This document shows, in pieces, positions 3,664 through 62,659 of a stretch of DNA of 64,000 bases; within the stretch, counting starts at the first letter, position 1; every line of letters begins with the position of its first letter. The notes beneath the pieces were generated by a model. It saw only the letters and a list, made by a program, of their open reading frames with translations. It had not been told where the DNA came from and ran no database searches. Origin of the DNA: Escherichia phage MIZ4; sequence record OR167180; one strand, 5' to 3'. The position numbers and the translations under genes are program-made.

Positions 3664-4218
3664 CTAAAAATTTTTAACACCATATTCACCAAAATAAAGA
3701 TCAACCGCTTTGTCATAAGCTCTGGCCGCATCTTCTTCGTTGACATAATACCCAAGAGATATTAGTTTATCATTATTTCGTATTCTTGCAACCCATTTCT
3801 TCGTATGTTTATGCCAGCTAACCCCTTTATACTTGCTTGCTTTATTCTTGTACTTTCCAACGTTACAAGCATTTTTCTTTGCGTCGGACTCTCTAAGATT
3901 GCGTGGTGCGTTGTTTAAAGGATTTCGGTCTATATGATCTATAATTTCTGGTTGTGTTCCATGCTCAAGAAACCATACAATACGATGTACATATGGCTTT
4001 AAAACCCTCCCATTATCCATAACAATTGCAATTTGGAGATGATCCTGACTTTTAAAAGTTTTTACTTTATCTCCTGCCTTATAAAACTTTCCTTCGTAAT
4101 TCTTTCCTCCGGCTCGGCTATTCTTTAAATGATAAAGAATACCATCGTCGTCATGTCTATATCTTTCTCGTATAATTCGTTGCGTTTCTTCATCCCACAA
4201 TTTGGAACGTCTACTCAT
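3664..4218 (-). CDS. HNH homing endonuclease with C-terminal AP2-type DNA-binding domain
   Basis: HNH motif IDHIDRNPLNN followed by AP2-like YKGVSWHKHTKKWVARIRNNDKLISLGYYVNEEDAARAYD; SD GAGGAAG upstream; sits where T4 carries alpha-gt. Confidence 0.75.
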   Translation of the reverse strand: MSRRSKLWDEETQRIIRERYRHDDDGILYHLKNSRAGGKNYEGKFYKAGDKVKTFKSQDHLQIAIVMDNGRVLKPYVHRIVWFLEHGTQPEIIDHIDRNPLNNAPRNLRESDAKKNACNVGKYKNKASKYKGVSWHKHTKKWVARIRNNDKLISLGYYVNEEDAARAYDKAVDLYFGEYGVKNF

Positions 4219-4308
4219 AGTCTCTTCCTCTCTTCGTTTTCGATGCTCTCACTATATCACAGAAAAATAAAAAGGGAAACCCCTTTCAGAGTCTCCCTTA
4301 TAAAGCCA

Positions 4309-4596
4309 TTACAGCATACTTAATACCGTTTGCCGTGTACTAATCCACATAGCAGAAAGCAGTTCTGGTGTGTGTGGCTGTTTGTAGATATCACGTAATT
4401 TTCCGATAGCGTAGATATACGCATCACGATTATCATCGATGATAGCTTGCTCAGCCCACCGCTTAAGTCGTGCAATCTCTCGCGAGTTCTTACGCAAGAT
4501 CTTTTCCGCTTTCTTAGCGGCTTTAGCCTCTAGTTCTGCTTGTACTTTGTCTACTTCATTCACTGCAATCTTGTCATGCTGTTCATTGCAAGTCAT
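4309..4596 (-). CDS. Hypothetical protein (95 aa), charged/coiled-coil
   Basis: ORF track; minus-strand array; no motif. Confidence 0.5.
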   Translation of the reverse strand: MTCNEQHDKIAVNEVDKVQAELEAKAAKKAEKILRKNSREIARLKRWAEQAIIDDNRDAYIYAIGKLRDIYKQPHTPELLSAMWISTRQTVLSML

Positions 4597-4597
4597 A

Positions 4598-4831
4598 TTA
4601 TTTTACCTCTGGGATATAATCAATTATTAAAGAAAATTCATCTTCTGATACATTATAGCTATGTGAGATTGTACCCGTCAAGACCTCAAGATCCGGTGAT
4701 TTGATATTGCACGGATCGATAATCACCGGAACGCCGCAATCTCTCAAAAATAATTTGGCGAAATACGGCACAAGGTCAGTTTCAAACTCTGCTTCTTCCA
4801 GCAAACGGGAAATGTTAATTTTCAATCTCAT
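4598..4831 (-). CDS. Hypothetical protein (77 aa)
   Basis: ORF track; abuts neighbours on same strand. Confidence 0.45.
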
Positions 4832-5348
4832 AAAATTGGTCCAGGCTAGGCAATTCCTCGGTCAATACATCTTCAACCTTTGGCGCTTTCGGTTTATTGA
4901 CCGATTCCTCGTAGTTGTTGATTTTATCGTAAATGTCCTGTATGAATGCCTCATCAGCAATCTGGCACATATCAGCGTCGCGTTCGTCATATACATGATG
5001 CACAAAATATTTGTATTTTGCGGCTGTCGCTGTTCTTTCTTTTTTAATGCGCTGCACAAAAGCATTAAAGCACGCTTGCGTGATGTAAGCATGAGGATTT
5101 TTATACTTTGTCTCGTCAAAATTAATCAAACCCTTGACCGCCGCTTCGATTCCATCGTCGATCATTTCTTCGCGCCATGTTTGACTATAGCCAGAAAAGT
5201 TAAAACGCCGTGATAGATTTTTAGAGATTTGCATAATTGCCAGGCCGATTTGGTCACTCATTGGCACTTGCCGACCTTCTGCTGCAATTCGTTGTTTCCA
5301 ACGGCAAATTTCTTCGTAAAGCTCTTTATTGTTTACATAATCAGACAC
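4815..5348 (-). CDS. 55: Late-transcription sigma factor gp55
   Basis: Central region [57 protein letters not shown] is nearly identical to recalled T4 gp55. Confidence 0.93.
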
Positions 5349-5388
5349 TTCGCACCCTCGCTATTATTTAGGAAATAACCCTTTCGGG

Positions 5389-6858
5389 CTATTCCCCATT
5401 ACCATTATACTTTCTTTGCTTAGTTATCCACACTCTAACCATCTCTACTGATTCACCGTCAGAGGGATCAAGAGTTTTTCCTTTTTTCTTCATGCGGTAC
5501 TTAAATCCGTTAAATCTTGCATTCTCTTGCTCGTTAAAGTCGAACATCTTTTTAAATGATTTTCTCCCTTTACGCTCACCGCATTCTAGCGGAATCATTC
5601 GGTCTGTTATTACATTGGCATTAGGTAGAAACGTTTTTAGATAATCTACCAACGCCCAATCAGGAACATATAGATTAACATTCTCCTTGCTCTCGTTGTC
5701 TCTCAGGTTACAACGCAAACATAATTGAAATGCTGGTTCCAGATAATCAGACACATGACGCGCTTTCAAAAACTCATTTGTCGGGAGATCACAACTATTA
5801 GCAAGACCTTTTAAAATATCAATCTCCCATCGTTGAGGGTTAAAGCTGAACATCACAGCAACATTTTTATGATGAATGTAAGAGTTAAGACCATAAGATC
5901 CGTAAGGTATCCGCTCACCAATACCATTTGTACACGCTTCACGGTCCCGATTCACGGTATAAATGAAGTCATCACCACATTCATTTTTAACCATATCAAC
6001 CAGACGTTCAAAGGTATTGTTTGTTTCTGACTGGTGACGCGACCATCGTTCGGAGTCCGTCATAAGGATGATGTTAACTCTATCTGTATTTTTATACTCT
6101 TTGAAATATAGTCTGGATTCTAGCGCACTCGGAACAAAATCGCAATTTGCATAGTATCGTAGATACTTCCCACTATATGTATCAAAGAGATTTGCACATG
6201 CTATCGTAACCTTTTTAAAGTCTCCCCACGTACCGTGTTTGTTATCGTTCAAGAAAACAATTTTCGACCCATTCTTCCGGTGGCCTTCGTTATGTTTTAC
6301 CATAACGTTGATTTTCTTCTCTAATAACGCCTCATAAAGCCCTCTAAGAGAAGAATCGATCATATCAGTACCATCCTTTGCACTTTCTATCTTTTCTTTG
6401 ATAGCGGCCTTCTCAGAGTCTTTTAGAACTAAGTTCTGTAGGCATTCCGATTCGTCGGCGATTGGTTCGCAATGCTTCGTGATAAGTTCAAGATTAGACT
6501 TAAACGGATACTCATTAAATTCAACCAGTTGAGGAACTTCATCAATGTAAAGAGCATAATCACCAAACATTTTTGAACGTTCCATATTAGATAACGCTGT
6601 ATGTGTAATGAATATCACATCAGCACCATCTTTAACTGATTGCATTATCGACGCTTGCACTGTCTTAAGGCTTCTTAGTCTTGTGCTATCAATCAAGACA
6701 GCACGACCGCCCATTCTTTTAAACTTATTGTAAGATTGTTCACTTAAAACACGAGATGGCGAAGCAATAACCGCTTTTTCTTTTGTCTCTAGGACGTGGG
6801 AAAGTATAGCATCAGTTTTCCCCGCCGCTGGCAATGCGATTAATGTTTCAATCTTCAT
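5389..6858 (-). CDS. P-loop NTPase of unknown function (489 aa)
   Basis: N-terminal Walker A-like ALPAAGKT and Walker B-like ALYIDEV; remainder Cys-containing with no recognised fold; not resembling T4 alpha-gt. Confidence 0.6.
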   Translation of the reverse strand: MKIETLIALPAAGKTDAILSHVLETKEKAVIASPSRVLSEQSYNKFKRMGGRAVLIDSTRLRSLKTVQASIMQSVKDGADVIFITHTALSNMERSKMFGDYALYIDEVPQLVEFNEYPFKSNLELITKHCEPIADESECLQNLVLKDSEKAAIKEKIESAKDGTDMIDSSLRGLYEALLEKKINVMVKHNEGHRKNGSKIVFLNDNKHGTWGDFKKVTIACANLFDTYSGKYLRYYANCDFVPSALESRLYFKEYKNTDRVNIILMTDSERWSRHQSETNNTFERLVDMVKNECGDDFIYTVNRDREACTNGIGERIPYGSYGLNSYIHHKNVAVMFSFNPQRWEIDILKGLANSCDLPTNEFLKARHVSDYLEPAFQLCLRCNLRDNESKENVNLYVPDWALVDYLKTFLPNANVITDRMIPLECGERKGRKSFKKMFDFNEQENARFNGFKYRMKKKGKTLDPSDGESVEMVRVWITKQRKYNGNGE

Positions 6859-7163
6859 TAGAAACCCTTACGTCGTGCTTTCTGGCATTTCTTGATCATT
6901 TTATCAGAAATTTCGCGCTTAGGTGCAATCTCTTTCACACCGAAAGCACTAATGCCAAATTCAGAGAGAATATATTCAACTAACAATTCACGCACACGCG
7001 CTTTACCGATATTCACGCCGTTATTTTTCAGATATGTCTGGCCTTCGACTTGCATCAGATCTAAATCAGCGTCGGTAATATTGATTTCTTCCATGCGCCC
7101 AAATCGAGAATAAACCATGTGTGCGATTGCATTGTGTACTAACATAATATATTCCTCACTCAA
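6858..7163 (-). CDS. Hypothetical protein (101 aa)
   Basis: ORF track; stop/start overlap with downstream P-loop gene. Confidence 0.5.
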   Translation of the reverse strand: MSEEYIMLVHNAIAHMVYSRFGRMEEINITDADLDLMQVEGQTYLKNNGVNIGKARVRELLVEYILSEFGISAFGVKEIAPKREISDKMIKKCQKARRKGF

Positions 7164-7164
7164 G

Positions 7165-7326
7165 AATTACTTAATGATACTTACTTTACCAGATCCATGA
7201 CAATGAGCGCAACACCCATCACCACGCAATCCTGTTCCGTTACAGTGTTTACACTTCTTCAACGGTAAAGCCATTATAGCAAATAAAGCAATAATGAACA
7301 CCGAAACTAAATTCTCAATAATCATA
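7165..7326 (-). CDS. Putative small membrane-anchored zinc-finger protein (~54 aa), not in ORF track
   Basis: Manual translation MIIENLVSVFIIALFAIMALPLKKCKHCNGTGLRGDGCCAHCHGSGKVSIIK: hydrophobic N-terminus then two CxxCxGxG repeats like a DnaJ-type zinc finger; start overlaps stop of upstream gene; coordinates approximate. Confidence 0.3.
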
Positions 7327-7584
7327 AATCTCCCTCAGTTCTTTATAGCCTCCAATGTGCTCGTTGTCAATGAATATCTGGGGGTATACAAATCGGAGGC
7401 TCTTTGAGTTCAGCCTCCCCGCCAGTTCTTCAATCATATCACGGTCGGGAATAATGTCAACCCCAACCTGCTTGAATACTGGTTTAAGTGTATACGGAAT
7501 ACCCAGATCATCCAGTAGCTTCATTGCACTAATACAACCATAACAATGATAAGCCTCTTTCGGTATGCCGTATATCTCGATCAT
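7315..7584 (-). CDS. nrdH: Glutaredoxin-like protein (NrdH-like redoxin)
   Basis: CxxC motif HCYGC near N-terminus, YPQIF and IGGYKEL motifs typical of glutaredoxin fold; positioned near nrdG/nrdD as in T4. Confidence 0.6.
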   Translation of the reverse strand: MIEIYGIPKEAYHCYGCISAMKLLDDLGIPYTLKPVFKQVGVDIIPDRDMIEELAGRLNSKSLRFVYPQIFIDNEHIGGYKELREIYDY

Positions 7585-8102
7585 TTCTCAGCCTTTAATC
7601 TTTCTAGTTCTTCTTCCAGTTCCTTGATCCGTTGGTCACGTTCAAAGTCACGCTGCAACTTAGTGGCGAATACTCGTTTAAACTGATTGTAATCATCGAT
7701 TTTAAACACTTCTTCTTCGCCATAGCGACGCACAGAAACTTCGTAGTTGTTGAAAAATTGTTCCAACATTGCATCAGTAGTCAGTTCTGACGACACCACT
7801 TTAAAATAACGTTCTTCGGATTGCAAAAACCAGTTGTGCGCGTATTCCCGTACATCATCAACATCTCGACAGGTGTATGTTTTTCCATCAATTTCAATCG
7901 CAGAAACATATTCGATATCTGATGCAATTTTTTCAAAAGCGATAACTTTAAATGTACGGTCACCGATAAAGTCTGCTATTGCATCATTTGCAACACTGGT
8001 TGCAAAGGCTTTCCGCGCTCGCTCGTTTTTCCACTGATAGGTCATACCAACAACAAACATATTACCATCAACAAACATATTACCATCCTCGCTCTTTACC
8101 AA
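7581..8102 (-). CDS. Hypothetical protein, member of paralogous family A/B with C-terminal coiled coil
   Basis: Shares VGMTY.WK, IEIDGKTYT and ERYFKVV blocks with the ORFs at 8080-9922 and 14285-16374; C-terminal RIKELEEELERLKAEK coiled coil. Confidence 0.55.
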   Translation of the reverse strand: MVKSEDGNMFVDGNMFVVGMTYQWKNERARKAFATSVANDAIADFIGDRTFKVIAFEKIASDIEYVSAIEIDGKTYTCRDVDDVREYAHNWFLQSEERYFKVVSSELTTDAMLEQFFNNYEVSVRRYGEEEVFKIDDYNQFKRVFATKLQRDFERDQRIKELEEELERLKAEK

Positions 8103-8904
8103 TCAAAAATTCAACTTCACGACGTTTAATGTCTTCTTGAAGGTCTTTAATCTTCTGGCGATCTTGCATTATTTCGTCCATCTTGTCAAGTGCTGCGATG
8201 AAATCATCGAAACGTTCAAAGGTTTTACCTTCATTTGCTTCGCCAAATTTAACCATTGTCAGGCCGTAACGACTACTAAACAGACGTTTCAACTGTCCAA
8301 CGATTTTAGAATCAGTGGTTATAACTTCCAATTCTTCTACTTCACGAAAGAATTTTCTATCAGAATCAATAAACCAGCTAGTTCCTTTATGGTTGCTATC
8401 TTCGGTTGCACTCATTAGAGTATGGTCTTTACCATCAATTTCAATTACATCAATTTGCCCACATGGACGAACATTTTTAACAGTAAAAGGTCTATAATTT
8501 ATTGCTCGTGCAATAACATAATTAAGATTAGATACGTTTTCAGCATAATGGCAGAAGTCGGTCATAGCATTCACGTCTTTCCAAGTATAAGTTTTACCAA
8601 CTTCCCATTTCTGGGGAACTTCTTCAACTTCACGAAAGAATTTTCTATCGAATGGACTAAAGAAATATGTTGCAGTCCAAATGTCTTTTCCTGTAGCAGT
8701 TTTCGCCGTATGATAAACACCGTCTAGCTCTATTGCATTAATCCAACCGTTGCCATCGATCTCGATGATGGTAAATGGCTTGTCACCAATAGCTGCACTA
8801 ATATCGCTGTTAAGTGGAGAAAGAACACCTTCTCCGTTAGTAATAAACTCAGTTTTAGCGTTTACATCTTTCCAAGTGTAAGTTTTACCAATTTCCCATT
8901 TCAT
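8080..8904 (-). CDS. Hypothetical protein with two tandem copies of the family A domain
   Basis: Internal duplication: MKWEIGKTYTWKDVNA...FDRKFFREVEE and KWEVGKTYTWKDVNA...DRKFFREVEE; C-terminal coiled coil. Confidence 0.6.
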   Translation of the reverse strand: MKWEIGKTYTWKDVNAKTEFITNGEGVLSPLNSDISAAIGDKPFTIIEIDGNGWINAIELDGVYHTAKTATGKDIWTATYFFSPFDRKFFREVEEVPQKWEVGKTYTWKDVNAMTDFCHYAENVSNLNYVIARAINYRPFTVKNVRPCGQIDVIEIDGKDHTLMSATEDSNHKGTSWFIDSDRKFFREVEELEVITTDSKIVGQLKRLFSSRYGLTMVKFGEANEGKTFERFDDFIAALDKMDEIMQDRQKIKDLQEDIKRREVEFLIGKERGW

Positions 8905-8916
8905 AATATATTCCCC

Positions 8917-9922: not shown

Positions 9923-9923
9923 C

Positions 9924-10569: not shown

Positions 10570-10644
10570 ATTTGATTCTCCTGTAAAGTTGTATCTCGTC
10601 TTGATGAATATAGTATAGGGGATCTCGTGATCCCCGTCAAGCAT

Positions 10645-11178: not shown

Positions 11179-11189
11179 CTCACATTATT

Positions 11190-14260: not shown

Positions 14261-14288
14261 ATTATAGCATACTCCCTTCGCATGTCAA
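14261..14288 (-). promoter_or_regulatory. Sigma70-type early promoter (repeated cassette) for ORF 13736-14230
   Basis: Minus-strand TTGACA (14283-14288), 16-nt spacer, TATAAT (14261-14266); -10 lies inside palindrome GGGAGTAT..ATACTCCC. Confidence 0.5.
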
Positions 14289-15463
14289 GCACTAACTTTT
14301 TTCTTTACTGCTTTCACCTTCTGGCGAATTGCTCGAATCTCTTCGATCTCTTTTTCAGTATCTTTAACAATTTCTTTGCGATTCTGAATATCTTTATCGA
14401 GATTATCATCAAGTTTAGGCAGCATGTCAATCAAGAACTTTTTAAGGTCTTTCAGGTTGCGAATAACAGTACCTTCACCCATTACCGCCACGCCTACACC
14501 ATCCGGCAGATCACCAAACAGTTTAACCAGTTCAGACAGATGATCATGATCTTCTAGTGCTTCTTCCGGTTCAGATGGCAGTTCAACAAAGTAATAACGT
14601 TCATCATTGCTGATCAGGTGATACCAGCAAAGCCCAAAAGATTTAGGAGTATATTCTACACCACCAACTTCAACTGCGTCAACACTTCCATAATCATCTA
14701 CTTTAGTTACCTTAAATCCTTGTCCCAGCTTTTGAACAATTTCAACAACATGACTTGATACAGTTTCAGCGGTAAACCAATATGGCAAATTATGCTGATT
14801 TGGCTTGTAGCGTTCACCTACTTTAAATCTCTGACCAGCCGCTTGCATAGAATGAAATTGTTGTTTCGTGATTTCCGCGAAGTATTCAAATTCGCCACCA
14901 TCAAACACACAAGCCCATTGATCACAAAAACGATCTGCCTTAACAGTTTCACCTTTCGCGGTGATCATGGTAGCTGATCCGTGCAATTCTTCTTCAACTA
15001 AAAAGCCATATTCGACAAAATCAACAAGTTTCATAGCTTCTTTGTGATCTGGATCATGCTCTCCCCAGAATCGCTTAAATTCTTGCAAACCTTCTGGGGT
15101 AAACGAATAACATTTACCTTTTTCAAAGTAAGTCGGCATTGCATCCTCTTTCTTGTTCATCGCTTCGTATGCCTCTTTTGAGATGCGTTTAAAGTATTTA
15201 CGCTCATTGTGCATAATCATAGTAGCCCAATAATCAACAATATCATTAGCGGAATAAACTACATCTCCAGCTTCAATAGTAATAACATGACCGTGGTCAT
15301 CTTTTTCTAATACTTTAAAGCCCTTTTCTACGATTTCAGCAACTCGAATATGACCACGGCGCGAAGCATCGGTCAGAATAATTGAATAGCGAGAAAAGTC
15401 TAGAAACTCATCTTTACCGCCTTCACGGAATGCATAGTAATGACCTTCAAAGAATTTAGCCAT
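14285..15463 (-). CDS. Hypothetical protein (392 aa), family B, several domain repeats plus C-terminal coiled coil
   Basis: Contains NERKYFKRISK block shared with 15527-16105, and repeated F.KG..Y.F / GFKV..VD..G modules. Confidence 0.6.
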   Translation of the reverse strand: MAKFFEGHYYAFREGGKDEFLDFSRYSIILTDASRRGHIRVAEIVEKGFKVLEKDDHGHVITIEAGDVVYSANDIVDYWATMIMHNERKYFKRISKEAYEAMNKKEDAMPTYFEKGKCYSFTPEGLQEFKRFWGEHDPDHKEAMKLVDFVEYGFLVEEELHGSATMITAKGETVKADRFCDQWACVFDGGEFEYFAEITKQQFHSMQAAGQRFKVGERYKPNQHNLPYWFTAETVSSHVVEIVQKLGQGFKVTKVDDYGSVDAVEVGGVEYTPKSFGLCWYHLISNDERYYFVELPSEPEEALEDHDHLSELVKLFGDLPDGVGVAVMGEGTVIRNLKDLKKFLIDMLPKLDDNLDKDIQNRKEIVKDTEKEIEEIRAIRQKVKAVKKKVSA

Positions 15464-15526
15464 AATATAATCCTCTCGTTGTTTAGATGGGAGTATCTTA
15501 CTACTCCCGTTTCATCATGTCAAGCG

Positions 15527-16105
15527 TTAAAGTGACTTTTTAATCTCTTTCAGTTCTTCCACTTTCTCGGCGCTGAATTTAGCGTAGGTATCATGTCGAA
15601 TAATTTCACTTTCAAGAAAGGTTTCCAGTCGAGATCTATTTTCAATAAGGAACTCTTTCAGGTCTTCCGCGTTCTTGACAAAGATTTTATTGTCGGTAAT
15701 GTCATCTTCAATCGCAAAGGAGATAGAGCGAACTTTACCAAACAAGTTAATCAGATCTTCCAGAGATTCTTCTTTCTTAACTGGTTTCATTTCTTCAAAC
15801 TGCTTTTTAGTGATGCGTTTAAAGTATTTGCGCTCGTTTGCAGCAATCAGAACAGATGCACCTTCATACCCATGAGTTTCTACCAGATACACACGCCCCA
15901 TCGCATCAACAGTGAGAACTTTAAAGCCGTTACAAAGCACGTCATACAAGAACTTATTATGTTGCGGACATCGTTTGATAAATTCTGCGGCTGTTTCTGC
16001 ACTACGGAAAGTGTAATAACGACCTCGTTCAAAAACAGCATCATTTGAAGACTTAGCCGGATACAATTTATACATTTTCTGTACCATAATATAATCCTCT
16101 ATCAT
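15527..16105 (-). CDS. Hypothetical protein (192 aa), family B paralog
   Basis: GRYYTFRS...GFKVLTVDAMGRV...ANERKYFKRITKKQFEEM; C-terminal coiled coil. Confidence 0.6.
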   Translation of the reverse strand: MIEDYIMVQKMYKLYPAKSSNDAVFERGRYYTFRSAETAAEFIKRCPQHNKFLYDVLCNGFKVLTVDAMGRVYLVETHGYEGASVLIAANERKYFKRITKKQFEEMKPVKKEESLEDLINLFGKVRSISFAIEDDITDNKIFVKNAEDLKEFLIENRSRLETFLESEIIRHDTYAKFSAEKVEELKEIKKSL

Positions 16106-29986: not shown

Positions 29987-30580
29987 TTAAACGTATTCAG
30001 CAACAACATTATGTTTAAAATTACCGCTCCTTTTTGGATTTGGATTTTTCAATCGACTATGTATTAAATTTTTGTTGTATCCGGTTGCTTTAGACGCTTC
30101 GCCAATACTTTGATAAACAACACCATTAACACGAATCGGACGAGACTTATTAAACAGTTTATTCAATCCGGCATCATATGCATGGTTTTGGTTTTCTTGC
30201 CTCGTTGCGATCTCAAGATTCCAAACACAATTACAAGATTTTACCCCACTTTTATGATTAATTTCAAGACCTTCACAATCACCTATAAAGTGTTCAGCAA
30301 CTAGTCTATGAATATAGCGATATTTCTTACTTTCCCCATCATGCAAGCATACATTATAATAACCATCACCAGCGCGTTTAGGTCGGAGTAGTTTACCTTT
30401 AACACGTTTTATAGTAGGGAACTCACCAAATTGATTTCTCTGGATAAACGGAATCTCGCGGTCTAATGAACGGATTCGACCATAGTTAGACACTTGATAA
30501 AAACTTTCATATCCTTTAATTGGCTTCCATATCTCAGGGATTTCTACACCATCAATAACAACAAGTTTAAATTCTTCCAT
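29987..30580 (-). CDS. HNH homing endonuclease (NUMOD4-HNH-NUMOD1-like architecture)
   Basis: YQVSNYGRIRS (NUMOD4-like), HNH region CLHDGESKKYRYIHRLVAEHF...INHKSG...NLEIATRQEN, C-terminal VNGVVYQSIGEASKATG helix-turn-helix-like. Confidence 0.8.
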   Translation of the reverse strand: MEEFKLVVIDGVEIPEIWKPIKGYESFYQVSNYGRIRSLDREIPFIQRNQFGEFPTIKRVKGKLLRPKRAGDGYYNVCLHDGESKKYRYIHRLVAEHFIGDCEGLEINHKSGVKSCNCVWNLEIATRQENQNHAYDAGLNKLFNKSRPIRVNGVVYQSIGEASKATGYNKNLIHSRLKNPNPKRSGNFKHNVVAEYV

Positions 30581-30628: not shown

Positions 30629-31042
30629 TTACATAGATTCCGTAAAGGTACGGGTGATAATATCAAGTTGTTGTTCGCGTGTCAAGGCGTTGAAGCGGGT
30701 AGCATAACCACTGATTCGAATTGTAAGCTGCGGGTACTTCTCAGGATGTTCAACCGCATCAAGAAGAGTCTCCCGACGCAGTACATTCGCGTTGAGATGA
30801 TGACCCGCGTTACTATTTACCCCGTTATCAATTGCTAAAGGACGGAAGCTAGTTGTGTGCAGTTCCAGCGAATCGACGTCTTCTGCGGTGATCACATGAT
30901 CTTCTGCGAAAGTTTTACTAACAATTACTTTAGCGCCGATCAGTGCTTTCGGTTCGGATACCAGAATCATAGGCGCGAAATGTCCACCGATAATAGTACC
31001 TTTATGCTCACCTTTCATGATTTGAATTGCTTTAAATTCCAT
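30629..31042 (-). CDS. Autonomous glycyl radical cofactor (GrcA/YfiD-like, PFL C-terminal domain homolog)
   Basis: C-terminal [29 protein letters not shown] matches the PFL/GrcA glycyl-radical signature; a T4 YfiD homolog is known. Confidence 0.85.
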
Positions 31043-37493: not shown

Positions 37494-37524
37494 AAAAACA
37501 AAAAACCCCGAAAAATTTTCGGGG
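37494..37524 (-). terminator. Intrinsic terminator downstream of 57B-like gene
   Basis: CCCCGAAAA-ATTTTCGGGG hairpin at 37506-37524 followed on the minus strand by TTTTTTGTTTTT. Confidence 0.65.
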
Positions 37525-41350: not shown

Positions 41351-41358
41351 TATAAATA
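41351..41358 (+). promoter_or_regulatory. T4-type late promoter box TATAAATA upstream of gp53
   Basis: Exact TATAAATA 33 nt upstream of the gp53 ATG; lies between the two arms of an 11-bp inverted repeat TTTAGCACCCT/AGGGTGCTAAA. Confidence 0.6.
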
Positions 41359-43764: not shown

Positions 43765-44334
43765 ATGGTTGAAATTCTTCCGATGAGTTCAAAATTGGAG
43801 GATATCAGCGAGCGAGAAATCTTTGAGGTGGTGTTCTCTTATAAAGCAACGCCACCGGATGCAAATACCACATACACGATTAAAGAGTTTAAGATCAGCG
43901 AGTATCGCCCTAATAAGGGCGTTACCGTTGAAGAAACTAAAATATCTGGTGAGTATCGGGATAGTTTTTCGCTTGGCGCGGATTCTCTTAAATATATAAC
44001 GAAAGATAGAATTAAAAAATCTGCCGGAAGTTTTGATGATTTACCAGATCCAACTACCGCAGATCTATATTATTTTAACGCTCCTACACGTCTACAGGAG
44101 GTTTATACTTATAAAGTAACCCTAACCTATATCCAATCTGTTTCAGAGTCTTCTGGTGGTTCTGATGAAGGAAATAGTGGTGGTTCCAATAGCCGAGAGG
44201 GTGCTGGTGAAACTAATCCGCCTCCGGTAGTAACCGAGCACACAATAGAGAAAGTTTATACTCAAACCGTTTTTGGAAATTGGGATGTGTGGAGTAAACA
44301 GTTAAGAGATTATGTTAGAAGAAGTGAGGGATAA
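43765..44334 (+). CDS. Hypothetical protein (189 aa), at the T4 5.1 position
   Basis: ORF track; Ser/Gly-rich segment; positional only. Confidence 0.5.
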   Translation: MVEILPMSSKLEDISEREIFEVVFSYKATPPDANTTYTIKEFKISEYRPNKGVTVEETKISGEYRDSFSLGADSLKYITKDRIKKSAGSFDDLPDPTTADLYYFNAPTRLQEVYTYKVTLTYIQSVSESSGGSDEGNSGGSNSREGAGETNPPPVVTEHTIEKVYTQTVFGNWDVWSKQLRDYVRRSEG

Positions 44335-44335
44335 T

Positions 44336-44875
44336 ATGATTGAAGTAATTCATTACACCAAAGAAGATGAAATTTTATATAATAGACTACATGAACTATT
44401 TTATGAAGTTGACGGAAAGGTTTATAGAAGGTTCTCTCGTGGACGTTCTAAAGCCGGAAGTCTAGTTGGTGGATTGAAGATAAATCCATGTGGATATAGA
44501 TATTGGAGACTTGCTGTTGATGGTAAAGAGTTTCAGAGGTCTCATGTTGTTTATCATATGCATCACGGACACACTCCGAGAAAACCACTACAAATAGATC
44601 ATATTAACACAAACTCCCTTGACGACCGAGTTAGCAATTTAAGACCAGCAACCGTTACCCAACAAATGTACAACCAAAATAAACAATCCGATTGCACATC
44701 TTCATATATTGGTGTTAATTGGAATAAAAATTCCAAAAAATGGGAAGCTAGAATTAGAGCTAATGGAAAACGAATCCGTTTAGGTCTATTTGATAATGAA
44801 ATTGACGCTGCGATTGCCTATAACACCGCTGCATTATCTAGAGATTCAAAAGTTAACAAATTAAACAATGTATGA
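44336..44875 (+). CDS. HNH homing endonuclease with AP2-type DNA-binding domain
   Basis: HNH motif HVVYHMHHGHTP...IDHINTNSLDD and AP2-like YIGVNWNKNSKKWEARIRANGKRIRLGLFDNEIDAAIAYN; start set at ATG 44336 (SD GAGGGA 5 nt upstream); same architecture as ORF 3664-4218. Confidence 0.75.
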   Translation: MIEVIHYTKEDEILYNRLHELFYEVDGKVYRRFSRGRSKAGSLVGGLKINPCGYRYWRLAVDGKEFQRSHVVYHMHHGHTPRKPLQIDHINTNSLDDRVSNLRPATVTQQMYNQNKQSDCTSSYIGVNWNKNSKKWEARIRANGKRIRLGLFDNEIDAAIAYNTAALSRDSKVNKLNNV

Positions 44876-51265: not shown

Positions 51266-51523
51266 ATGGCACGTCGTAAATTTACAGATAATTGTGAAGC
51301 AATTCAGGTATCCCCTTGCGGTTGGGATGTGATCGCGAACGGTGAAAAGATTGGAGAGATCATCGATCATACTCATTCATCACTAGCCGATTACACCGAT
51401 GAACTATGGGAGGGTATCAACTTCATGAATGACACTAAACGATTCAAGACTATCGACGAAGCTATCTATTTTGTGTATAATCCAACTTTCGGTATGTGGG
51501 GAACTAGAAAATGGCACGCGTAA
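51266..51523 (+). CDS. Hypothetical protein (85 aa), first gene of inserted cassette
   Basis: ORF track; SD GGAGGA; starts MARRKF as do the next two genes. Confidence 0.55.
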   Translation: MARRKFTDNCEAIQVSPCGWDVIANGEKIGEIIDHTHSSLADYTDELWEGINFMNDTKRFKTIDEAIYFVYNPTFGMWGTRKWHA

Positions 51524-51840
51524 ATATTAAACTGCATTATACAATGGGTAAACCAAAACATCCAATGCATAAAGTGTTTTGGGGCTTGCATCTTCAAGAA
51601 AAATGGCATGATAACTATTGGTTTTGTGACCATGATAAGAAGTGGCATTCTCAAGATGAAGTTAATGCGATGATGGAACAGGGTATCAAATTTAATTACT
51701 CTAATTATGACCATAGCATTACTTGTATTCGAAAATTGAAACGGTTTATTCGAAAGAATCCGCAATTTAAAAACTTTGTGTTCTTTATGTCTCATGTTTA
51801 TTTGGGGCATAGCGTTACCGTAACAGTAAAGGTTAAATAA
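51511..51840 (+). CDS. Hypothetical His/Trp-rich protein (109 aa), second gene of inserted cassette
   Basis: ORF track; overlapping start/stop with neighbours. Confidence 0.55.
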   Translation: MARVNIKLHYTMGKPKHPMHKVFWGLHLQEKWHDNYWFCDHDKKWHSQDEVNAMMEQGIKFNYSNYDHSITCIRKLKRFIRKNPQFKNFVFFMSHVYLGHSVTVTVKVK

Positions 51841-52679
51841 TGGCACGACTTTCTAAACAAGAGCAAAAATTACACGATCGGGCGATGGAGTTGATTAATT
51901 CAGATCGTCCATTGACATTTGAAGAAAAAGAATTTTGCTATAACAACTATCATGGCGATGGACTAGGTGGTTCCGGTGCATTCTTTACCCCAGAATGGCT
52001 TGCCTGGGATTTTACCATTGATGCATATTGCACCGGAAAAGTATTAGATCTTTGTGCGGGGATCGGTCGCTTATCTTTTTGTATGTTACATCGTTGTAAG
52101 CCAGAAAAGATCGTATGCGTCGAACTCAATCCAGAATTTGCGCGGATTGGCAAGCGACTATTACCGGAGGCAGAATGGATCACCAGCGATGTATTCGAAT
52201 TTGAGTCAAACGAAAAATTCGATGTGGTGATCAGCAATCCACCTTTCGGTAAAATCAATACTACAGACACAAAGGATGTATTTGAATATACTGGCGGTGA
52301 GTTTGAATTTAAGGTTATGACGTTAGGCCAGAAGTTTGCCGATGTAGGTTATTTTATTGTTCCTGCTAGTTCCGCTGGGTTTGCTTATTCCGGCAGACCT
52401 TATTATGATGAATCAGTGAAGTCTAATAAATATCTAAAATGGAGCAAACAAACTGGTTTGGTGACTTACGCCGGATGTGGGATCGATACATCAATCTATC
52501 GCGATGAATGGCATAGTACCAACGTTTTAACAGAAGTGGTTGAGGTTCGGTATTACGAGAAAGAAGCCGTAGAAGCGCCTAAATCACGTCCCAACGAACA
52601 AATAGAAGAAAGTAAGGAGATTACCTTACCGAAACAGGAAAGCGAGTCTGGGACGCTCTCAGATTTGTTTGACATTTAA
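51840..52679 (+). CDS. Gamma-class amino-methyltransferase (probable DNA N6-adenine MTase), orphan
   Basis: Motif X GAFFTPEWL, motif I VLDLCAGIGRLS, motif IV VISNPPFG in X-I-IV order; no adjacent specificity or restriction subunit. Confidence 0.7.
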   Translation: MARLSKQEQKLHDRAMELINSDRPLTFEEKEFCYNNYHGDGLGGSGAFFTPEWLAWDFTIDAYCTGKVLDLCAGIGRLSFCMLHRCKPEKIVCVELNPEFARIGKRLLPEAEWITSDVFEFESNEKFDVVISNPPFGKINTTDTKDVFEYTGGEFEFKVMTLGQKFADVGYFIVPASSAGFAYSGRPYYDESVKSNKYLKWSKQTGLVTYAGCGIDTSIYRDEWHSTNVLTEVVEVRYYEKEAVEAPKSRPNEQIEESKEITLPKQESESGTLSDLFDI

Positions 52680-52719: not shown

Positions 52720-52727
52720 TATAAATA
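52720..52727 (+). promoter_or_regulatory. T4-type late promoter box TATAAATA upstream of gp9
   Basis: Exact TATAAATA ~28 nt upstream of gp9 ATG at 52755. Confidence 0.6.
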
Positions 52728-55408: not shown

Positions 55409-55409
55409 T

Positions 55410-56054: not shown

Positions 56055-56065
56055 GGTGTAAAATT

Positions 56066-57469: not shown

Positions 57470-59238
57470 TGATCGAACAGTTAAACATTCGAAAGATCCC
57501 TAACGTCGATGGTGTCCCTGGAGAGGGACAGCATTCTATTAGCTGGATTAAAAATGGTGAATGTCTAAGCGCAGCAACCACAGAAACAGGACACGAGGGG
57601 ACGCTTAACCGCGCCCCTTATGCGATTCAAGAAAATATTGTTCGTCTGGATGAAAATTCTAAGACAACGGTAACAAAAGTTAACGAAGTTGTTACAGCAG
57701 TTAATGATATTAAAACTACTTTAGGCGCGGTTGCTGATGGTAGTATTATTGATATTGTCAATCAAACTATTTCAAAGGTTGAGTCTGTAGAAGAAAATTT
57801 AGGAGAAACTTCAAGGACATTACAAACCACAGTAGATGAACTGGCGGAGACCGGAAAGAAAATTGGTGTTCGTCCGGCAGCAGATCCGAGCACACGAACA
57901 ATATATGGTGATATTTCTTTCATCAAACAAGAATTGGGCGCTTTCCCTAACTTCAATATCAACGGTTATCCAGATCCAGGTAGTTCCGGTTCCGGTATCA
58001 AATATCGAGTTATCCAGAATACGGAAGCATTAAACAACCACGGTCAGCGAATCCGCCAACTAGAAAACGACTGGCAAGATTCTGACGTTGGAGAGCTAAC
58101 AGAACAAGTTAACAAAATGCGAAGCGAGCTAGGCGACACATCACTAGCAACACAGGACAATGTTTATCTTCGTCTTCGCACAAATACTCGCAATATCGCT
58201 AGTATATCAAACGAAGTTCAGGAAGTAAAGAAAGCGATTCGATTTGAATCAATTCCTGATATCGGTACTAAAGTAACTAAGCTACAATCTGATTATACAC
58301 AGCTTAATGATGAAGTCAACGGCGTTGACGCTGGTATCCGTCCTCGTTTAACTCTTCTGGAAAATACGATTGGCAGTCCTCAAGCCGCTGGAAGTATTGA
58401 TTATCGATTGACTAATCAAGAAAGGGAATTTGTAGATCTTAAATCTATTGTCGGTGTTAGTGGTGCTGATGGCCTACGTGGTGAGGTTGCACGAATCTCT
58501 AACACAGTTGGTACTGATAGTGAGCGTCATACTATCGCAGGTCGTCTAAAAATTGTAGAAAATACACAGGGACGACTAGAAGCTAGCGTACAGGATATCG
58601 AGCAAATGATCGGAGATCGAGATTCCGGTCTAACCGCCGGGGTTATTAAGCTGTCAAGCGACATGTACGGCAATCCAGAAGGAAGCACGCAGCTTGAACA
58701 AGATGGGATCGTGAAAACTGTTAAGGAATTGAGCACATCAAATGCAAGCAAGGTAACAGACGTTCCTGATGATGGTTTCCATTATCTACGTAAGCACGGG
58801 GAATGGGTTCAGGTCGCATGGGCGGCTGGTACATTTAAAAACACCGCTCAGATTGATATTACTCTCGACGGACAAGATCAATACAAAGGAATCCCGCTAA
58901 ACGATATGACCGAAGAAGTTCCTGCGCGTGGAATGGTTAAGAGCGAATCTCTTGTTACGGTTAACGACAAAGGCTTATTCCGTTGTGATTTCCGTTGTTC
59001 TGTACATGCGGCAAATAACGCTACTTTCGTAGTCGGTATTGCTAAAAATGGTCTGATTGTACATGAGGTACGAAATGGTCATTATGGAACTGATGATTTA
59101 ATTAGCTATTCTACCAGTGCTTTCCTAAATATTGAAAAGGGCGACCGGATCGATATTCGCATTAAGGGCGTATCCGAAGAAACATTAGCGCAACAGCTAC
59201 AAATTAAAGAGTTCCTCTTTGGAATTTCTCCGGTATAA
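57469..59238 (+). CDS. wac: Fibritin (whisker antigen control, Wac) with extended C-terminal domain
   Basis: N-terminus PNVDGVPGEGQHSISWIKNGE matches recalled T4 Wac; long coiled-coil middle; foldon-like GFHYLRKHGEWVQV followed by an extra ~110 aa. Confidence 0.88.
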   Translation: MIEQLNIRKIPNVDGVPGEGQHSISWIKNGECLSAATTETGHEGTLNRAPYAIQENIVRLDENSKTTVTKVNEVVTAVNDIKTTLGAVADGSIIDIVNQTISKVESVEENLGETSRTLQTTVDELAETGKKIGVRPAADPSTRTIYGDISFIKQELGAFPNFNINGYPDPGSSGSGIKYRVIQNTEALNNHGQRIRQLENDWQDSDVGELTEQVNKMRSELGDTSLATQDNVYLRLRTNTRNIASISNEVQEVKKAIRFESIPDIGTKVTKLQSDYTQLNDEVNGVDAGIRPRLTLLENTIGSPQAAGSIDYRLTNQEREFVDLKSIVGVSGADGLRGEVARISNTVGTDSERHTIAGRLKIVENTQGRLEASVQDIEQMIGDRDSGLTAGVIKLSSDMYGNPEGSTQLEQDGIVKTVKELSTSNASKVTDVPDDGFHYLRKHGEWVQVAWAAGTFKNTAQIDITLDGQDQYKGIPLNDMTEEVPARGMVKSESLVTVNDKGLFRCDFRCSVHAANNATFVVGIAKNGLIVHEVRNGHYGTDDLISYSTSAFLNIEKGDRIDIRIKGVSEETLAQQLQIKEFLFGISPV

Positions 59239-59244
59239 GAAATT

Positions 59245-59273
59245 AAAGGGGCGTTAAGCCCCTTTTCCGTTTA
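59245..59273 (+). terminator. Intrinsic terminator after wac
   Basis: AAAGGGGC-GTTA-GCCCCTTT hairpin followed by TCCGTTTAT. Confidence 0.6.
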
Positions 59274-59284
59274 TAGGTGATATT

Positions 59285-60217
59285 ATGTCAGGATATGTAA
59301 CCAATAACCCAAGAGAATTAAAAGACGCTATTCTGCGTCGTTTAGGCGCACCAGTAATTAACGTAGAAGTCACAGAAGACCAGATTTACGATTGTATTCA
59401 GAGAGCACTAGAACTCTATGGGGAATATCATTTCGATGGTGTGAATAAAGGATATAAAGTATTTCGTGTTAGTGCAGAGCAAGCTCAACACGGGGTATTT
59501 GATTTAAGCGATTCTGGTGTATTCGCAGTAACTAAAATAATTCGAACAAACGTAGGTAGCGCGGCTACGATGGATGGTACTGCCGTTTATCCGTGGTTTA
59601 CTGACTTTCTGTTGGGTTTAGCGGGTGTAAATGGCGGTTTAGGATCTGGCTGTAGTAAATTTTATGGTCCAAATGCGATGGGCGGTGATCTGGGATATTT
59701 CGAACAGCTTATGAGCTATCGCGCAACTATGCAAAACATGCTTAATCCGCTGCCAGATTATTGGTATAATAGCGCAAACGGACAACTTAAGATCACTGGT
59801 AATTTTCGAGAAGGTGATCTCATTGTTGTTGAATTATATGTTAAAAGCTATGTAGACGTTCCTGATATGATCGGCGCGGTTGCTGGTTATGCTCATGCGG
59901 GAGGATGTTCTACCGCTGGCGGGATTAGCGCCGTTTATGATAATCCAACTGCTGGTTTAAGCGGGATTGTTGCGGGCATGGGACCAATTAGAGAAAACAA
60001 GCAGGGCGCATATAATAACCGTTGGGTTAAAGACATGGCAACCGCTTTCACTAAGGAGGTGTGGGGGTCCATCATGGCTAAACATCAAGGTCTGCAATTG
60101 CCCGGCGGTGTCACTGTTGATGGTATACGAATCATTGAAGAAGCACGCGCCGACATTGAGAAATTGCGGCAAGAATTACTTGACTTAGATCCACCATTTG
60201 GTATACTAATGATATAA
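59285..60217 (+). CDS. 13: Neck protein gp13
   Basis: [72 protein letters not shown] match recalled T4 gp13. Confidence 0.95.
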
Positions 60218-60270
60218 AATAAATATGGGTATATGTTATCATATACCCTATGTTATATCGGAGATACTAA

Positions 60271-61086
60271 ATGGAACATTATGTGTACAAAATAACCAAC
60301 AAAATAAACGATAATATTTACGTGGGTGTTCGGTCTTGTGATGGATTGGCAGAAGACGATACAAAATACATGGGAAGCGGAAAAATAATAAAACAAGCTA
60401 TTAAGCATCACGGATTAGAAAATTTCACTAAAGAGATATTGTCAAAATTTGATAGCAGAGAAGACGCTGATAAAGAAGAGGCAAGGATTGTTACGGTTGA
60501 TTTTGTCAGGAGAGAAGACACATATAATATAGCAGAAGGCGGTGGCACTGTTTGTATGTGGAAGGTTTCTGATGAAGCAAAGATAGAAGAAATGAGAAAA
60601 AAGATCTCAGAGAAAAATACCGGCAGAAAACATACTAAAGACGCAAGACAAAAGATGTCCGCATCTCAAAAGGGAAGGAAGCACACGGAAGAAACAAAAG
60701 AAAAGATGAGGCAAAATAACTTAGGAAAAGTTATTGCAGAAGAGACAAAAGAAAAGTTAAGGATGATTAATTTAGGAAAAAGACATACAGAAGAAACGCG
60801 AAGAAAAATGTCTGATTCACATAAGGGTCTATCGTTATCCGATGAGGTGAAAGATAAGATAAGACAAAAACACACCGGACGTGTTTTTACTAAAGAATGG
60901 AGAGAAAGAATTAGTAAATCTAGACTCGGAATAACTAGCACTAGATCAAGAAGAATAAGCATCAACGGAGTGATATACAATAGCATAGGAGAAGCTGTTA
61001 TAAAATTAAACGTTAAGCGAGGATTGATTGTCGGAAGACTTAAATCAAATACCGATAAAAACAAAAATTATTTCTTCGTAGATTAA
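60271..61086 (+). CDS. GIY-YIG homing endonuclease (Seg-like) with repeated NUMOD3-type DNA-binding motifs
   Basis: N-terminal YVYKITNKINDNIYVGVRS...YMGSG GIY-YIG-type module; four KHTEET/RHTEET repeats; inserted between genes 13 and 14. Confidence 0.8.
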   Translation: MEHYVYKITNKINDNIYVGVRSCDGLAEDDTKYMGSGKIIKQAIKHHGLENFTKEILSKFDSREDADKEEARIVTVDFVRREDTYNIAEGGGTVCMWKVSDEAKIEEMRKKISEKNTGRKHTKDARQKMSASQKGRKHTEETKEKMRQNNLGKVIAEETKEKLRMINLGKRHTEETRRKMSDSHKGLSLSDEVKDKIRQKHTGRVFTKEWRERISKSRLGITSTRSRRISINGVIYNSIGEAVIKLNVKRGLIVGRLKSNTDKNKNYFFVD

Positions 61087-61122
61087 TAAATTGGGGGAGT
61101 ATTCCCCCATTTGGAGTAACAT

Positions 61123-61863
61123 ATGTTTAACAACACTCTTTTTGCTCGCCTTGAATCGCAGAAGGACTACGAGAATACACGACAAACAGAGATTCTTAAT
61201 CCTTATGTGAACTTTCACAAATATACAAATACTCAGACGTTAGCCGACGTTATGGTCGCCGAAGCTATTCAGATGCGAGGTGTAGAATTATATTACATCC
61301 CTCGTGAATTTGTCAAACCAGATATGATCTTTGGTGAGGATGTTCAAAGCAAATTTACTAAAGCATGGAAATTTGCGGCTTATATTAACTCATTTGATGG
61401 GTATGAAGGAGCGGGTAATTTCTTCTCTAGTTTCGGGTATCAAGCTAATGATGAACTAACTTTTACGGTTAACCCCAACCTATTCAAGCATCAAGTAGAT
61501 GATCAAGAGCCAAAATCAGGTGACTTAATTTATATTCCTATGAGCAATGATTTATTTGAAATCTCATATGTAGAGCCATATCAGCCGTTTTTTCAGGCTG
61601 GCAAAAATGCCATGCGTAAAATTATTGCAGAGAAATTCGTGTATAGCGGTGAGGAATTGCGACCAGAATTACAACGCAATGAGGGAATTAATGTTGATGA
61701 GTTTGCGGATCTGGATCTTGCACCGATCACTAATCTGGACGGGTTAACAGATATCAACTTAGATCAGTACAAAGAAGATAAGCAATTCAGAAGCGAAGGA
61801 CAAGATTTTATTGATCCGTTTGATCCTATTAATGGCAAGGGTTCACCTTTCGCCGATTTTTGA
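61123..61863 (+). CDS. 14: Neck protein gp14
   Basis: [81 protein letters not shown] match recalled T4 gp14. Confidence 0.95.
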
Positions 61864-61903
61864 TAAATACTTGTATTGATATAATATAAGGATCTAATGA
61901 CTT

Positions 61904-62659
61904 ATGAAAAACTATTATCTATACGAAATAAAGAACAATATAAATGGTAAGATATATGTTGGCATTCGTGGGTATGATGGTGACATAAGTCAAGATCCTT
62001 ATATGGGTAGTGGATTGACTCTTAAGAGGTCTATTAAAAAGAACGGGATAGAAAACTTCACAAAAACAATTCTCAAAACGTTTGACTCATGGAAAGAGGC
62101 AAGGAAAGCAGAAAGAGAAATAGTTACAGAGGAATTTGTAAAAAGAGAAGATACCTATAATGTTTCGGTTGGTGGACAAGGTGGAAATACTCACGCTGGG
62201 ATGAGCGAAGAACGAAGAAAACTTGCAAGCGAAAGACACGCAGAAGCAAACCGAAATAGAGTATGGAAGCAAGAATCTAGAGATAAGGTTAGCGCAAGAT
62301 TCAAAGGTCATAAGCTATCACAGAAGCAGATAGACGCGCTAAAGAAGGCAAACACAGGAAGAAAGTTCACAGAAGAACACAAGTTCAAAATAGGTAAAAC
62401 GTGGCGAGGAAAGAAACGACCAGATATAGGAGAGAAGGTTGCGGCAAAATTAACAGGGAGAAAACTACCCCCAGAACATGTGGCAGCAATAACGCAAAAT
62501 ACACCGAGAGGAAAACAACACTTTAGGGCAAAAAGATTCTTCATCGACGATATGGAATTTTATATTTTGAGTGATGCAGCTAAAATGTTTGATATAAGTT
62601 ATAAAACGGTTAAAGCTAGACTTCTCTCAGATAAGTTTCCTACATGGAGATATGAATAA
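61904..62659 (+). CDS. GIY-YIG homing endonuclease (Seg-like)
   Basis: N-terminal YYLYEIKNNINGKIYVGIRG...YMGSG; related to ORF 60271-61086; inserted between genes 14 and 15. Confidence 0.8.
   Translation: MKNYYLYEIKNNINGKIYVGIRGYDGDISQDPYMGSGLTLKRSIKKNGIENFTKTILKTFDSWKEARKAEREIVTEEFVKREDTYNVSVGGQGGNTHAGMSEERRKLASERHAEANRNRVWKQESRDKVSARFKGHKLSQKQIDALKKANTGRKFTEEHKFKIGKTWRGKKRPDIGEKVAAKLTGRKLPPEHVAAITQNTPRGKQHFRAKRFFIDDMEFYILSDAAKMFDISYKTVKARLLSDKFPTWRYE

Follow-up and report, generated by a model that had tools for sequence, protein, structure and literature searches.

Five freestanding homing endonuclease genes in a 64-kb stretch of a Krischvirus genome

How do five endonuclease genes come to lie between the genes of one T4-related phage, and are they likely to have moved between genomes in the recent past? 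The question is raised by a stretch of 64,000 nucleotides (nt) from Escherichia phage MIZ4 (sequence record OR167180), referred to below as the window. Over 64 kb the window is identical to Escherichia phage MIZ5 (OR167181.1) except for one additional A, and its positions 41000-64000 match the end of the MIZ5 record (165,508 base pairs (bp); Krischvirus, Straboviridae; host E. coli B) at 100%; in the comparisons below the genome is named MIZ5. Among the T4-related phages, Krischvirus comprises the RB49-like group. We consider the five genes, denoted HEG1 to HEG5 for homing endonuclease gene (Table 1), to be independent, freestanding homing endonuclease genes that have most likely spread by intronless homing, and we put the probability of this reading at roughly 0.8.

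Gene identity, domains and catalytic residues

A preliminary description of this DNA had listed five freestanding homing endonuclease genes, with a pair of GIY-YIG genes flanking gene 14 and an HNH gene inside the 5-to-6 block. Open reading frames (ORFs), Pfam, PHROGs and the phmmer count bear out the genes, their positions and their domains, and the annotation of the neighbours agrees with the arrangement, the local order being 13, HEG4, 14, HEG5, 15. All five coding sequences (CDS) are already annotated as 'HNH endonuclease' or 'homing endonuclease' in OR167181.1, and the PHROGs families for all five are HNH or homing endonuclease (E 1e-41 to 1e-58). No sixth endonuclease gene was found in the window by phmmer (12 endonuclease queries, 988 six-frame segments), and no endonuclease domain in 10 larger hypothetical proteins of the window by Pfam scan. 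An Rfam scan of the window gave neither a group I intron nor any other Rfam family, and ARAGORN found no tRNA. Because neither an intron nor a tRNA was found there, the five genes are freestanding: they lie outside introns, their neighbours are contiguous at the empty sites in RB49, Phi1 and JSE, and their occurrence is sporadic. The identity claimed earlier, that of freestanding homing endonucleases, thus holds in Pfam, in PHROGs and in the Rfam scan without intron.

Table 1. Features of the window discussed in the text. Insertion limits were taken from alignment to the empty sites of relatives; those of HEG2 and HEG5 are approximate. Column Carriers denotes the number and names of the genomes with the gene; aa denotes amino acids.
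Feature	Position	Strand	Length	Description	Location or reference	Carriers
HEG1	3664-4218	(-)	184 aa	HNH_3 + AP2	between gene 47 and a-gt.4	3: MIZ5, JK32, RB49
HEG1 insertion	3645-4214	(-)			relative to the empty site of phage Phi1	
HEG2	29987-30580	(-)	197 aa	NUMOD4 + HNH_3 (I-HmuI-like)	between vs.6 and nrdC.11	8: MIZ5, pEJ01, FL20, AV108, LF73P4, JK32, FL04, G37-3
HEG2 insertion	~29998-30576	(-)			relative to the RB49 empty site; between vs.6 terminator hairpin and nrdC.11 start	
T4-type late promoter	41351-41358	(+)		TATAAATA	33 nt upstream of gene 53	
HEG3	44336-44875	(+)	179 aa	HNH_3 + AP2	between 5.1 and 5.4 (PAAR spike tip)	5: MIZ5, G37-3, G5211, KFS-EC, Makalu_003
HEG3 insertion	44316-44875	(+)			relative to RB49	
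T4-type late promoter	52720-52727	(+)		TATAAATA	28 nt upstream of gene 9	
Gene 13 recoded 3' end	60188-60217	(+)		putative cleavage-resistant allele	linked to HEG4	
HEG4	60271-61086	(+)	271 aa	Seg-like GIY-YIG + NUMOD3 repeats + I-TevI-type helix-turn-helix	between neck genes 13 and 14	5: MIZ5, Makalu_001, Makalu_002, KFS-EC, PHB13
HEG4 insertion	60214-61082	(+)			relative to RB49 and JSE; 3' of gene 13 stop, 5' of native 13/14 hairpin (61092-61109) and gene 14 ribosome-binding site	
HEG5	61904-62659	(+)	251 aa	Seg-like GIY-YIG + NUMOD3 + I-TevI DNA-binding domain	between genes 14 and 15	7: MIZ5, FL20, G2494, AV108, SAP, TB34, JSE
HEG5 insertion/replacement	~61872-62674	(+)			relative to RB49 and Makalu_001	

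The HNH_3 domain, with its ββα-metal HNH core, scores 37-45 bits in HEG1, HEG2 and HEG3 (E=1e-11, E=2.5e-10 and E=2.3e-9, respectively), against a Pfam cut-off of 24.8 bits. In HEG1 it is combined with an AP2 domain above the cut-off (E=2.4e-10, 41.0 bits), which in a PDB search matches the AP2 structures of plant WRI1 and TEM1; the AP2 domain of HEG3 (E=1e-7, 32.6 bits) falls 0.7 bit below the 33.3-bit cut-off. HEG2 has a NUMOD4 domain (E=1.7e-18) and aligns to I-HmuI (PDB 1U3E, E=2.9e-12). The Pfam matches of the two GIY-YIG proteins are NUMOD3 (HEG4, E=1.2e-11; HEG5, E=2.8e-3), the I-TevI DNA-binding domain (E=1.9e-6 and E=3e-7) and SegE_GIY-YIG (E=4.6e-5 and E=7.8e-4), the last with slightly sub-threshold scores of 24.1 and 20.1 for a cut-off of 25. 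With TIGR01453, HEG4 scores above the cut-off (76.5 bits) and HEG5 below the 56-bit cut-off (39.5 bits).

In order to read the catalytic positions, the HNH cores were aligned with I-HmuI and relatives, and the motif was taken at the equivalents of I-HmuI D74, H75, N87 and N96. It is D-H-N-N, and thus intact, in HEG1, N-H-N-N in HEG2 and D-H-N-Q in HEG3, the general-base histidine (H75 equivalent) and the structural asparagine (N87 equivalent) being kept in all three. According to the I-HmuI structure paper, D74 and N96 are reportedly metal ligands. In the alignment of the HEG4 and HEG5 profile, the GIY-YIG residues Y4, Y17, G19, R21, E70 and N86 are invariant. The five-sequence profile, which is needed for the structure match since a PDB search with HEG4 alone gave no match, finds the I-TevI catalytic domain (1LN0/1MK0) at E ~0.008, with Y6, Y17 and N90 in register and E70 at most one residue from E75, and the I-TevI DNA-binding domain (1I3J) at E=6.8e-9. 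The preliminary description had asked whether careful alignment would reveal a loss of catalytic residues; we find the histidine in 3/3 HNH proteins and Y/Y/R/E/N in 2/2 GIY-YIG proteins, together with two ligand substitutions that are weighed below.

These proteins resemble known systems to different degrees. HEG4 and HEG5 share with T4 Seg proteins (SegA-G) and I-TevI the N-terminal GIY-YIG domain with its Tyr/Tyr/Arg/Glu/Asn residues, NUMOD3 and the C-terminal I-TevI helix-turn-helix, and they are likewise inserted between conserved genes. However, they are just 30-40% identical to any T4 Seg, and T4 has no such gene at 13/14 and 14/15. The nearest characterised relative of HEG4 is T4 SegB (39% over 184 aa), and homologs occur in ~900 phage records. 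HEG2 aligns over NUMOD4 and HNH_3 to I-HmuI, the intron-encoded HNH nicking endonuclease of Bacillus phage SPO1, and keeps the histidine, the structural Asn and the ligand Asn. The HNH_3 core is also found in HEG1 and HEG3; unlike I-HmuI, HEG1-3 are freestanding, and HEG1 and HEG3 have AP2 in place of the C-terminal DNA-binding modules of I-HmuI.

HEG1 is the ortholog of RB49 ORF040c, at the same site and with 98.6% nt identity, and that gene was placed among the AP2-HNH homing endonuclease genes in 2006 (PMC1524935). The HNH-AP2 class includes genes of RB43 and RB16, according to Magnani et al. 2004 as that work is cited in PMC1524935 and PMC2993671. For no member of the class did we find, in the literature, a target mapped in these phages. 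HEG3 resembles them in its HNH_3 and AP2 architecture but belongs to a distinct lineage and site. The earlier proposal that the two HNH-AP2 genes of the window arose by paralogous spread stands as regards their shared architecture and fails as regards recent spread, their identity being 43% over 96 aa. We rejected recent intragenomic duplication for both pairs: HEG1 and HEG3 are 43% identical, HEG4 and HEG5 33%, and closer relatives exist in other phages (by phmmer, HEG1 is closer to phiS gp018 and HEG3 to Whisky ORF135 than they are to each other).

The C-terminal part of HEG2 (29987-30130) resembles the C-terminal I-TevI-type DNA-binding region of HEG4 (60950-61086; phmmer E=3e-5), and Pfam gives a weak match to I-TevI_DNA-bd in HEG2. 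This likeness would fit the shuffling of DNA-binding modules that is known to occur among nuclease families.

Insertion sites, distribution and flanking alleles

Compared with the empty sites of relatives, the insertions are clean and lie at gene boundaries. HEG1 starts exactly at the original gene 47 ATG and uses the gene 47 ribosome-binding site, and it provides a new AGGAG and ATG for gene 47. The HEG3 ORF has an alternative start ATG upstream, at 44312. Its insertion swaps the final codons of 5.1 (…DYVHRGV(stop) in RB49 becoming …DYVRRSEG(stop)) and disrupts the native overlap of the 5.1 stop with the 5.4 start; the GGGGGTG ribosome-binding site of 5.4 is retained. The HEG4 cassette has its own hairpin (60227-60248) and a GGAG site. 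At the HEG5 site, the 14/15 spacer and the opening 5 codons of gene 15 have been replaced (MFSHF vs MFGWH), and the TAA stop of HEG5 is directly followed by the ATG of gene 15. The cassettes thus appear to be placed so that the neighbours would stay expressed, with ribosome-binding sites kept or provided, or with the next start codon abutted.

The distribution of the genes was assessed in the GenBank phage collection, in ~58 Krischvirus records representing ~52 distinct genomes, with each site covered; a search of IMG/VR by gp14 gave 3 loci only, and the GenBank phage collection was used instead. Rather than being universally present, a point on which the preliminary description had made its proposal depend, each gene occurs in 3-8 of ~52 relatives, and the empty sites are seen by comparison. 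Because they are absent from most close relatives, the five genes cannot be essential. All five together were found in MIZ5 only, any other genome having at most two of them, and MIZ5 is also the only genome with both genes flanking gene 14 (HEG4 and HEG5). The co-isolated sister phages MIZ2, MIZ3 and MIZ6 have none of the five. The combinations are incongruent: for HEG2 and HEG5, FL20 has both, JK32 has HEG2 only, JSE has HEG5 only and RB49 has neither. Separately, the record OZ035808.1 ('Krischvirus RB49', 162,105 bp) is without HEG1 and the RB49 reference NC_005066 has it; endonuclease gene content therefore varies under one species name.

Recent mobility, as claimed at the outset, is borne out by an endonuclease-gene identity of 99.8-100% between genomes whose flanks are 92-98% identical. 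HEG1 is identical to that of JK32 (555/555, flanks ~97.5%), HEG2 matches FL20 at 593/594 nt and HEG3 matches KFS-EC at 536/540 nt. HEG5 matches JSE at 755/756 nt with no synonymous divergence (pS=0), and for the same genome pair the neighbouring gene 14 has pS=0.29. The ratios of nonsynonymous to synonymous divergence (pN/pS) relative to orthologs, measurable in four of the genes, are 0.10 for HEG2 (vs G37-3) and 0.04 for HEG4 (vs Makalu_001), and 0.08 for HEG1 and 0.09 for HEG3, the latter two computed from just 8 and 4 differences, respectively; the essential gene 14 gives 0.05-0.10 for comparison. These ORFs are intact and under purifying selection, and are not decaying remnants.

The flanks of several sites carry alleles that go with the inserted gene. 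At the end of gene 13, HEG4 carriers differ from empty genomes by 8 substitutions in 30 nt, seven of them synonymous third-position changes and the other a change of stop codon from TGA to TAA, so that DPPFGILMI(stop) is unchanged; such clustering has a binomial P of ~5e-6 at the background divergence of 3.4%. The 80-nt end of gene 13 has at least 95% identity in 5/5 HEG4 carriers and in G37-3 and G5211, and 79-87% in the remaining records (~44). In G37-3 and G5211 the recoded end of HEG4 type stands beside a different endonuclease gene; as Brandy, which has the G37-3-type gene, retains a native gene 13 end, the recoded patch belongs to the history of HEG4. For HEG5, a match to the first 15 nt of gene 15 is confined to the 7 HEG5 genomes. 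In HEG2 carriers the entire vs.6 gene (30629-31042) is a diverged allele: on this side of HEG2, RB49 has 74% identity over the first 100 nt, rising to 87% when 600 nt are compared, and the identity of the HEG2 flanks is 95% or more among the 8 carriers, against 93.1% or less in other genomes. At the HEG3 site, the insertion itself probably disrupts the target.

Probable intronless homing and rival explanations

Under intronless homing, the endonuclease would, in a co-infection with a relative lacking the gene, cut or nick the empty allele at the point of insertion or close to it, and T4-type recombination-dependent repair would then copy the endonuclease gene, together with part of the DNA beside it, from the genome of the carrier. 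As members of the Seg-like and I-TevI-like class, HEG4 and HEG5 would be predicted to make site-specific double-strand cuts with 2-nt 3' overhangs. Markers beside each site would thus be inherited preferentially from MIZ5, that is, with localized marker exclusion. The carrier allele would be protected by disruption of the target through insertion or by closely linked recoded patches, the candidates being the synonymously recoded end of gene 13 for HEG4, the altered codons 1-5 of gene 15 for HEG5 and, for HEG2, the divergent allele of vs.6. Intronless homing and marker exclusion are documented in T4 for the seg and mob genes, and the recoding and identity patterns seen here are those that intronless homing with co-conversion and target-site immunity would predict (PMC2988022).

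Expression would come from read-through of existing transcription units. Because exact late promoters stand only before genes 53 and 9, HEG3, HEG4 and HEG5 are probably expressed in this way. The gene 53 promoter is the likely source of a HEG3 transcript (53-5-5.1-HEG3-5.4-6…) and the gene 9 promoter the likely source of HEG4 and HEG5 read-through transcripts (9-10-11-12-wac-13-HEG4-14-HEG5-15). Annotation and late-promoter positions thus agree with the preliminary description, which had placed these three genes in late structural transcription units, and several of the seg and mob genes of T4 are likewise described as promoter-less cassettes (PMC2988022). The recoded flanks also contain sigma-70-like hexamers (TTGACT-16-TATACT with an upstream TG, and TTGACA-17-TATTAT), located at the gene 13 end (60180-60207) and at the vs.6 end (~30660-30700, (-) strand), just upstream of HEG4 and HEG2; the empty alleles are without them.

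Several observations weigh against the homing reading. No exact match to TATAAATA lies beside any of the five genes, the exact matches being only those upstream of genes 53 and 9, and we rejected the sigma-70-like hexamers as dedicated promoters, as their number corresponds to chance frequency in AT-rich DNA (16 found vs 14.1 expected). Metal-ligand positions are substituted in HEG2 (D74->N) and HEG3 (N96->Q), and by their alignment either enzyme could be impaired by the substituted ligand. D74->N of HEG2 is also found in the unrelated gene of JSE at the same site. HEG4 is 96.7% identical to that of Makalu_001, which is not above its flanks, and there is therefore no sign of very recent HEG4 transfer. 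The patch in 5.1 upstream of HEG3 was rejected as an immunity allele, since it also occurs in ~8 empty-site genomes and is not diagnostic. The statistics of association between gene presence and flank allele ignore phylogenetic relatedness. Finally, that the enzymes are active, where they cut, that they are expressed and that they cause marker exclusion are inferences, and in the literature we found neither a biochemical nor a genetic test for any of the five proteins or for an ortholog.

Some of these points would also fit a different history, in which some or all of the five genes are inactive or domesticated relics, kept by linkage to essential genes or as donors of translation signals (gene 47, gene 15). 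The changes of metal ligands (HEG3 N->Q, HEG2 D->N) and the lack of an identity excess of HEG4 over its flanks are in line with it, as is the structural entanglement of HEG1 and HEG5 with the starts of downstream genes, and the frameshifted G37-3-type gene in Brandy shows that decay occurs at these sites. We nevertheless regard relics as unlikely. A pN/pS of 0.04-0.10 over 555-816 nt points to continued protein-level selection, and the near-identity of HEG1, HEG2, HEG3 and HEG5 between flank-diverged genomes points to recent transfer. The Q of HEG3 is common to P0020, a 41%-identical homolog with the same NLRPATVTQQ motif (N is found in 19/22 aligned sequences), which argues for a tolerated variant and suggests that the residue may not reflect decay.

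Even if the genes are active, their main selected role might be a benefit to the phage, either as a weapon against co-infecting relatives or as a driver of recombination or amplification of neighbouring loci. Marker exclusion favours the carrier genome (PMC2988022), and T-even SegB has recently been reported to promote segmental amplification of anti-defence loci (PMC13096335). Three of the genes adjoin essential virion genes, the alleles of which would be driven along. The sequence, however, gives no means of telling such a role from purely selfish homing; what flanks the genes are conserved structural genes and not anti-defence genes, and the patchy, low frequency (3-8/~52 genomes) speaks against a strong fitness benefit. 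We consider this role even less probable than that of relics. Least credible of all, and very improbable, is that the frames are chance or mis-annotated ones, or that the HNH proteins serve another role, as terminase-associated HNH proteins or AP2 transcription factors. HNH domains do occur in packaging accessory proteins of cos phages, and AP2 is a transcription-factor domain in plants. Yet none of the five genes adjoins terminase genes, and the strong domain E-values, with the distribution data, already effectively refute this reading. T4-type phages package by a headful mechanism. HNH-AP2 is moreover a published class of homing endonucleases (PMC1524935).

Taken as intronless homing, what is seen here is ordinary, known biology: known classes of mobile endonucleases, already annotated, in a well-studied phage group, and current understanding of homing endonucleases is unchanged by it. 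The modestly interesting details are the two Seg-like genes stacked round gene 14 and, at the 13/14 junction, what may be competition among several cassettes accompanied by synonymous recoding of the target. The main value lies in a sound annotation and in five places where MIZ5 likely imposes its alleles on co-infecting Krischvirus phages, which is relevant to mosaicism in phage-therapy cocktails, as these often contain mixed RB49-like phages. Candidate target sites are the 3' end of gene 13, the 5' end of gene 15, the 5.1/5.4 junction, the start of gene 47 and vs.6 (the upstream side of HEG2).

Other occupants of the sites and neighbouring features

Recurrent endonuclease hotspots are already known for T4-like phages. 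On the T4 map, mobD lies directly upstream of nrdC.11, segC between 5.1 and 5.3, and mobB in the 47-to-55 interval (PMC2988022 Table 1), and these are positional analogues of HEG2, HEG3 and HEG1, respectively; segC is a GIY-YIG gene, whereas HEG3 is HNH-AP2. We rejected HEG1-3 as homologs of the T4 Mob proteins (MobA-E, with an HNH of the HHIIPR…NLV.LT..EH type), as the best blastp match to MobB, MobC and MobD has E=0.24 and map position alone is shared. The lack of Mob similarity therefore indicates independent colonisations of the same recurrent hotspots. Counts of endonuclease genes reported for related phages are 2 in RB49, 2 in Phi1 and 7 in JSE (PMC2993671).

Several of the sites hold unrelated endonuclease genes in other Krischvirus phages: phiS at the HEG1 site, JSE at the HEG2 site, and GEC-3S and Whisky at the HEG3 site. 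The occupants of the 13/14 site in relatives are the 'segC' of Phi1, the G37-3 type and the E26 type. In G37-3 (L019:819-1480), a different GIY-YIG gene lies within the native 13/14 hairpin, and the 5' end of gene 14 is heavily recoded; Brandy (L026:819-1480) has a 98.9%-identical copy of this gene with a 1-nt frameshift, a pseudogene. The Seg-like cassette of Phi1 in the 13/14 spacer (L018:885-1469) is followed by a gene 14 with numerous synonymous changes over its first ~20 codons, and that of E26 (L020:841-1776) is accompanied by its own variant of the gene 13 end. As the altered flanks of these two cassettes differ, different endonucleases at one site seem to target different flanks. The unrelated occupants and the frameshift in Brandy would fit the known cycle of gain, decay and replacement. 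Somewhat tentatively, for we hold it to be possible but rather less than even, the 13-14-15 junctions may be an arena of competing, stacking cassettes, with at least four unrelated ones in the 13/14 spacer, each with a recoded flank. If HEG4 and HEG5 are both active enzymes and their targets lie in genes 13 and 15, all of gene 14 would be driven by MIZ5 as a doubly flanked cassette, a natural system in which successive immunisation and re-invasion at one site could be studied.

The 5-to-6 block of Whisky contains a 741-nt HNH gene between 5.1 and 5.4, plus an HNH-AP2 gene between 5.4 and 6 (L014:2087-2641), the latter being the nearest relative of HEG3 among the compared sequences (phmmer E=1e-36). 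In the HEG3 carrier KFS-EC, gene 5.4 is densely recoded over its first ~65 nt (L011:1527-1626; 81.6% over 100 nt vs 97-99% elsewhere). The same stretch of gene 5.4 is RB49-like in MIZ5, so that two HEG3 genomes differ in their downstream flank.

Between baseplate genes 8 and 9, positions 51266-52679 hold two small ORFs and a DNA methyltransferase gene, content which we take to be an insertion relative to the T4 gene order. The coverage figures of the match to the MIZ5 end suggest that RB49 also has this insertion. The methyltransferase gene is, we presume, probably RB49ORF143w. RB49ORF143w has been described as an ORF with a methyltransferase domain, its position unlisted (PMC1524935).

The additional A that distinguishes the window from OR167181.1 is located at ~37500 (37495-37505), in an intergenic A-run (A6 vs A5 in OR167181.1) just 5' of the hairpin CCCCGAAAAATTTTCGGGG, and is probably a homopolymer sequencing or version effect. 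On the (-) strand at 14285-16087, two neighbouring CDS of ~1179 and 561 nt are each annotated as 'goF mRNA metabolism modulator', and this doubled annotation may represent a split or duplicated gene.

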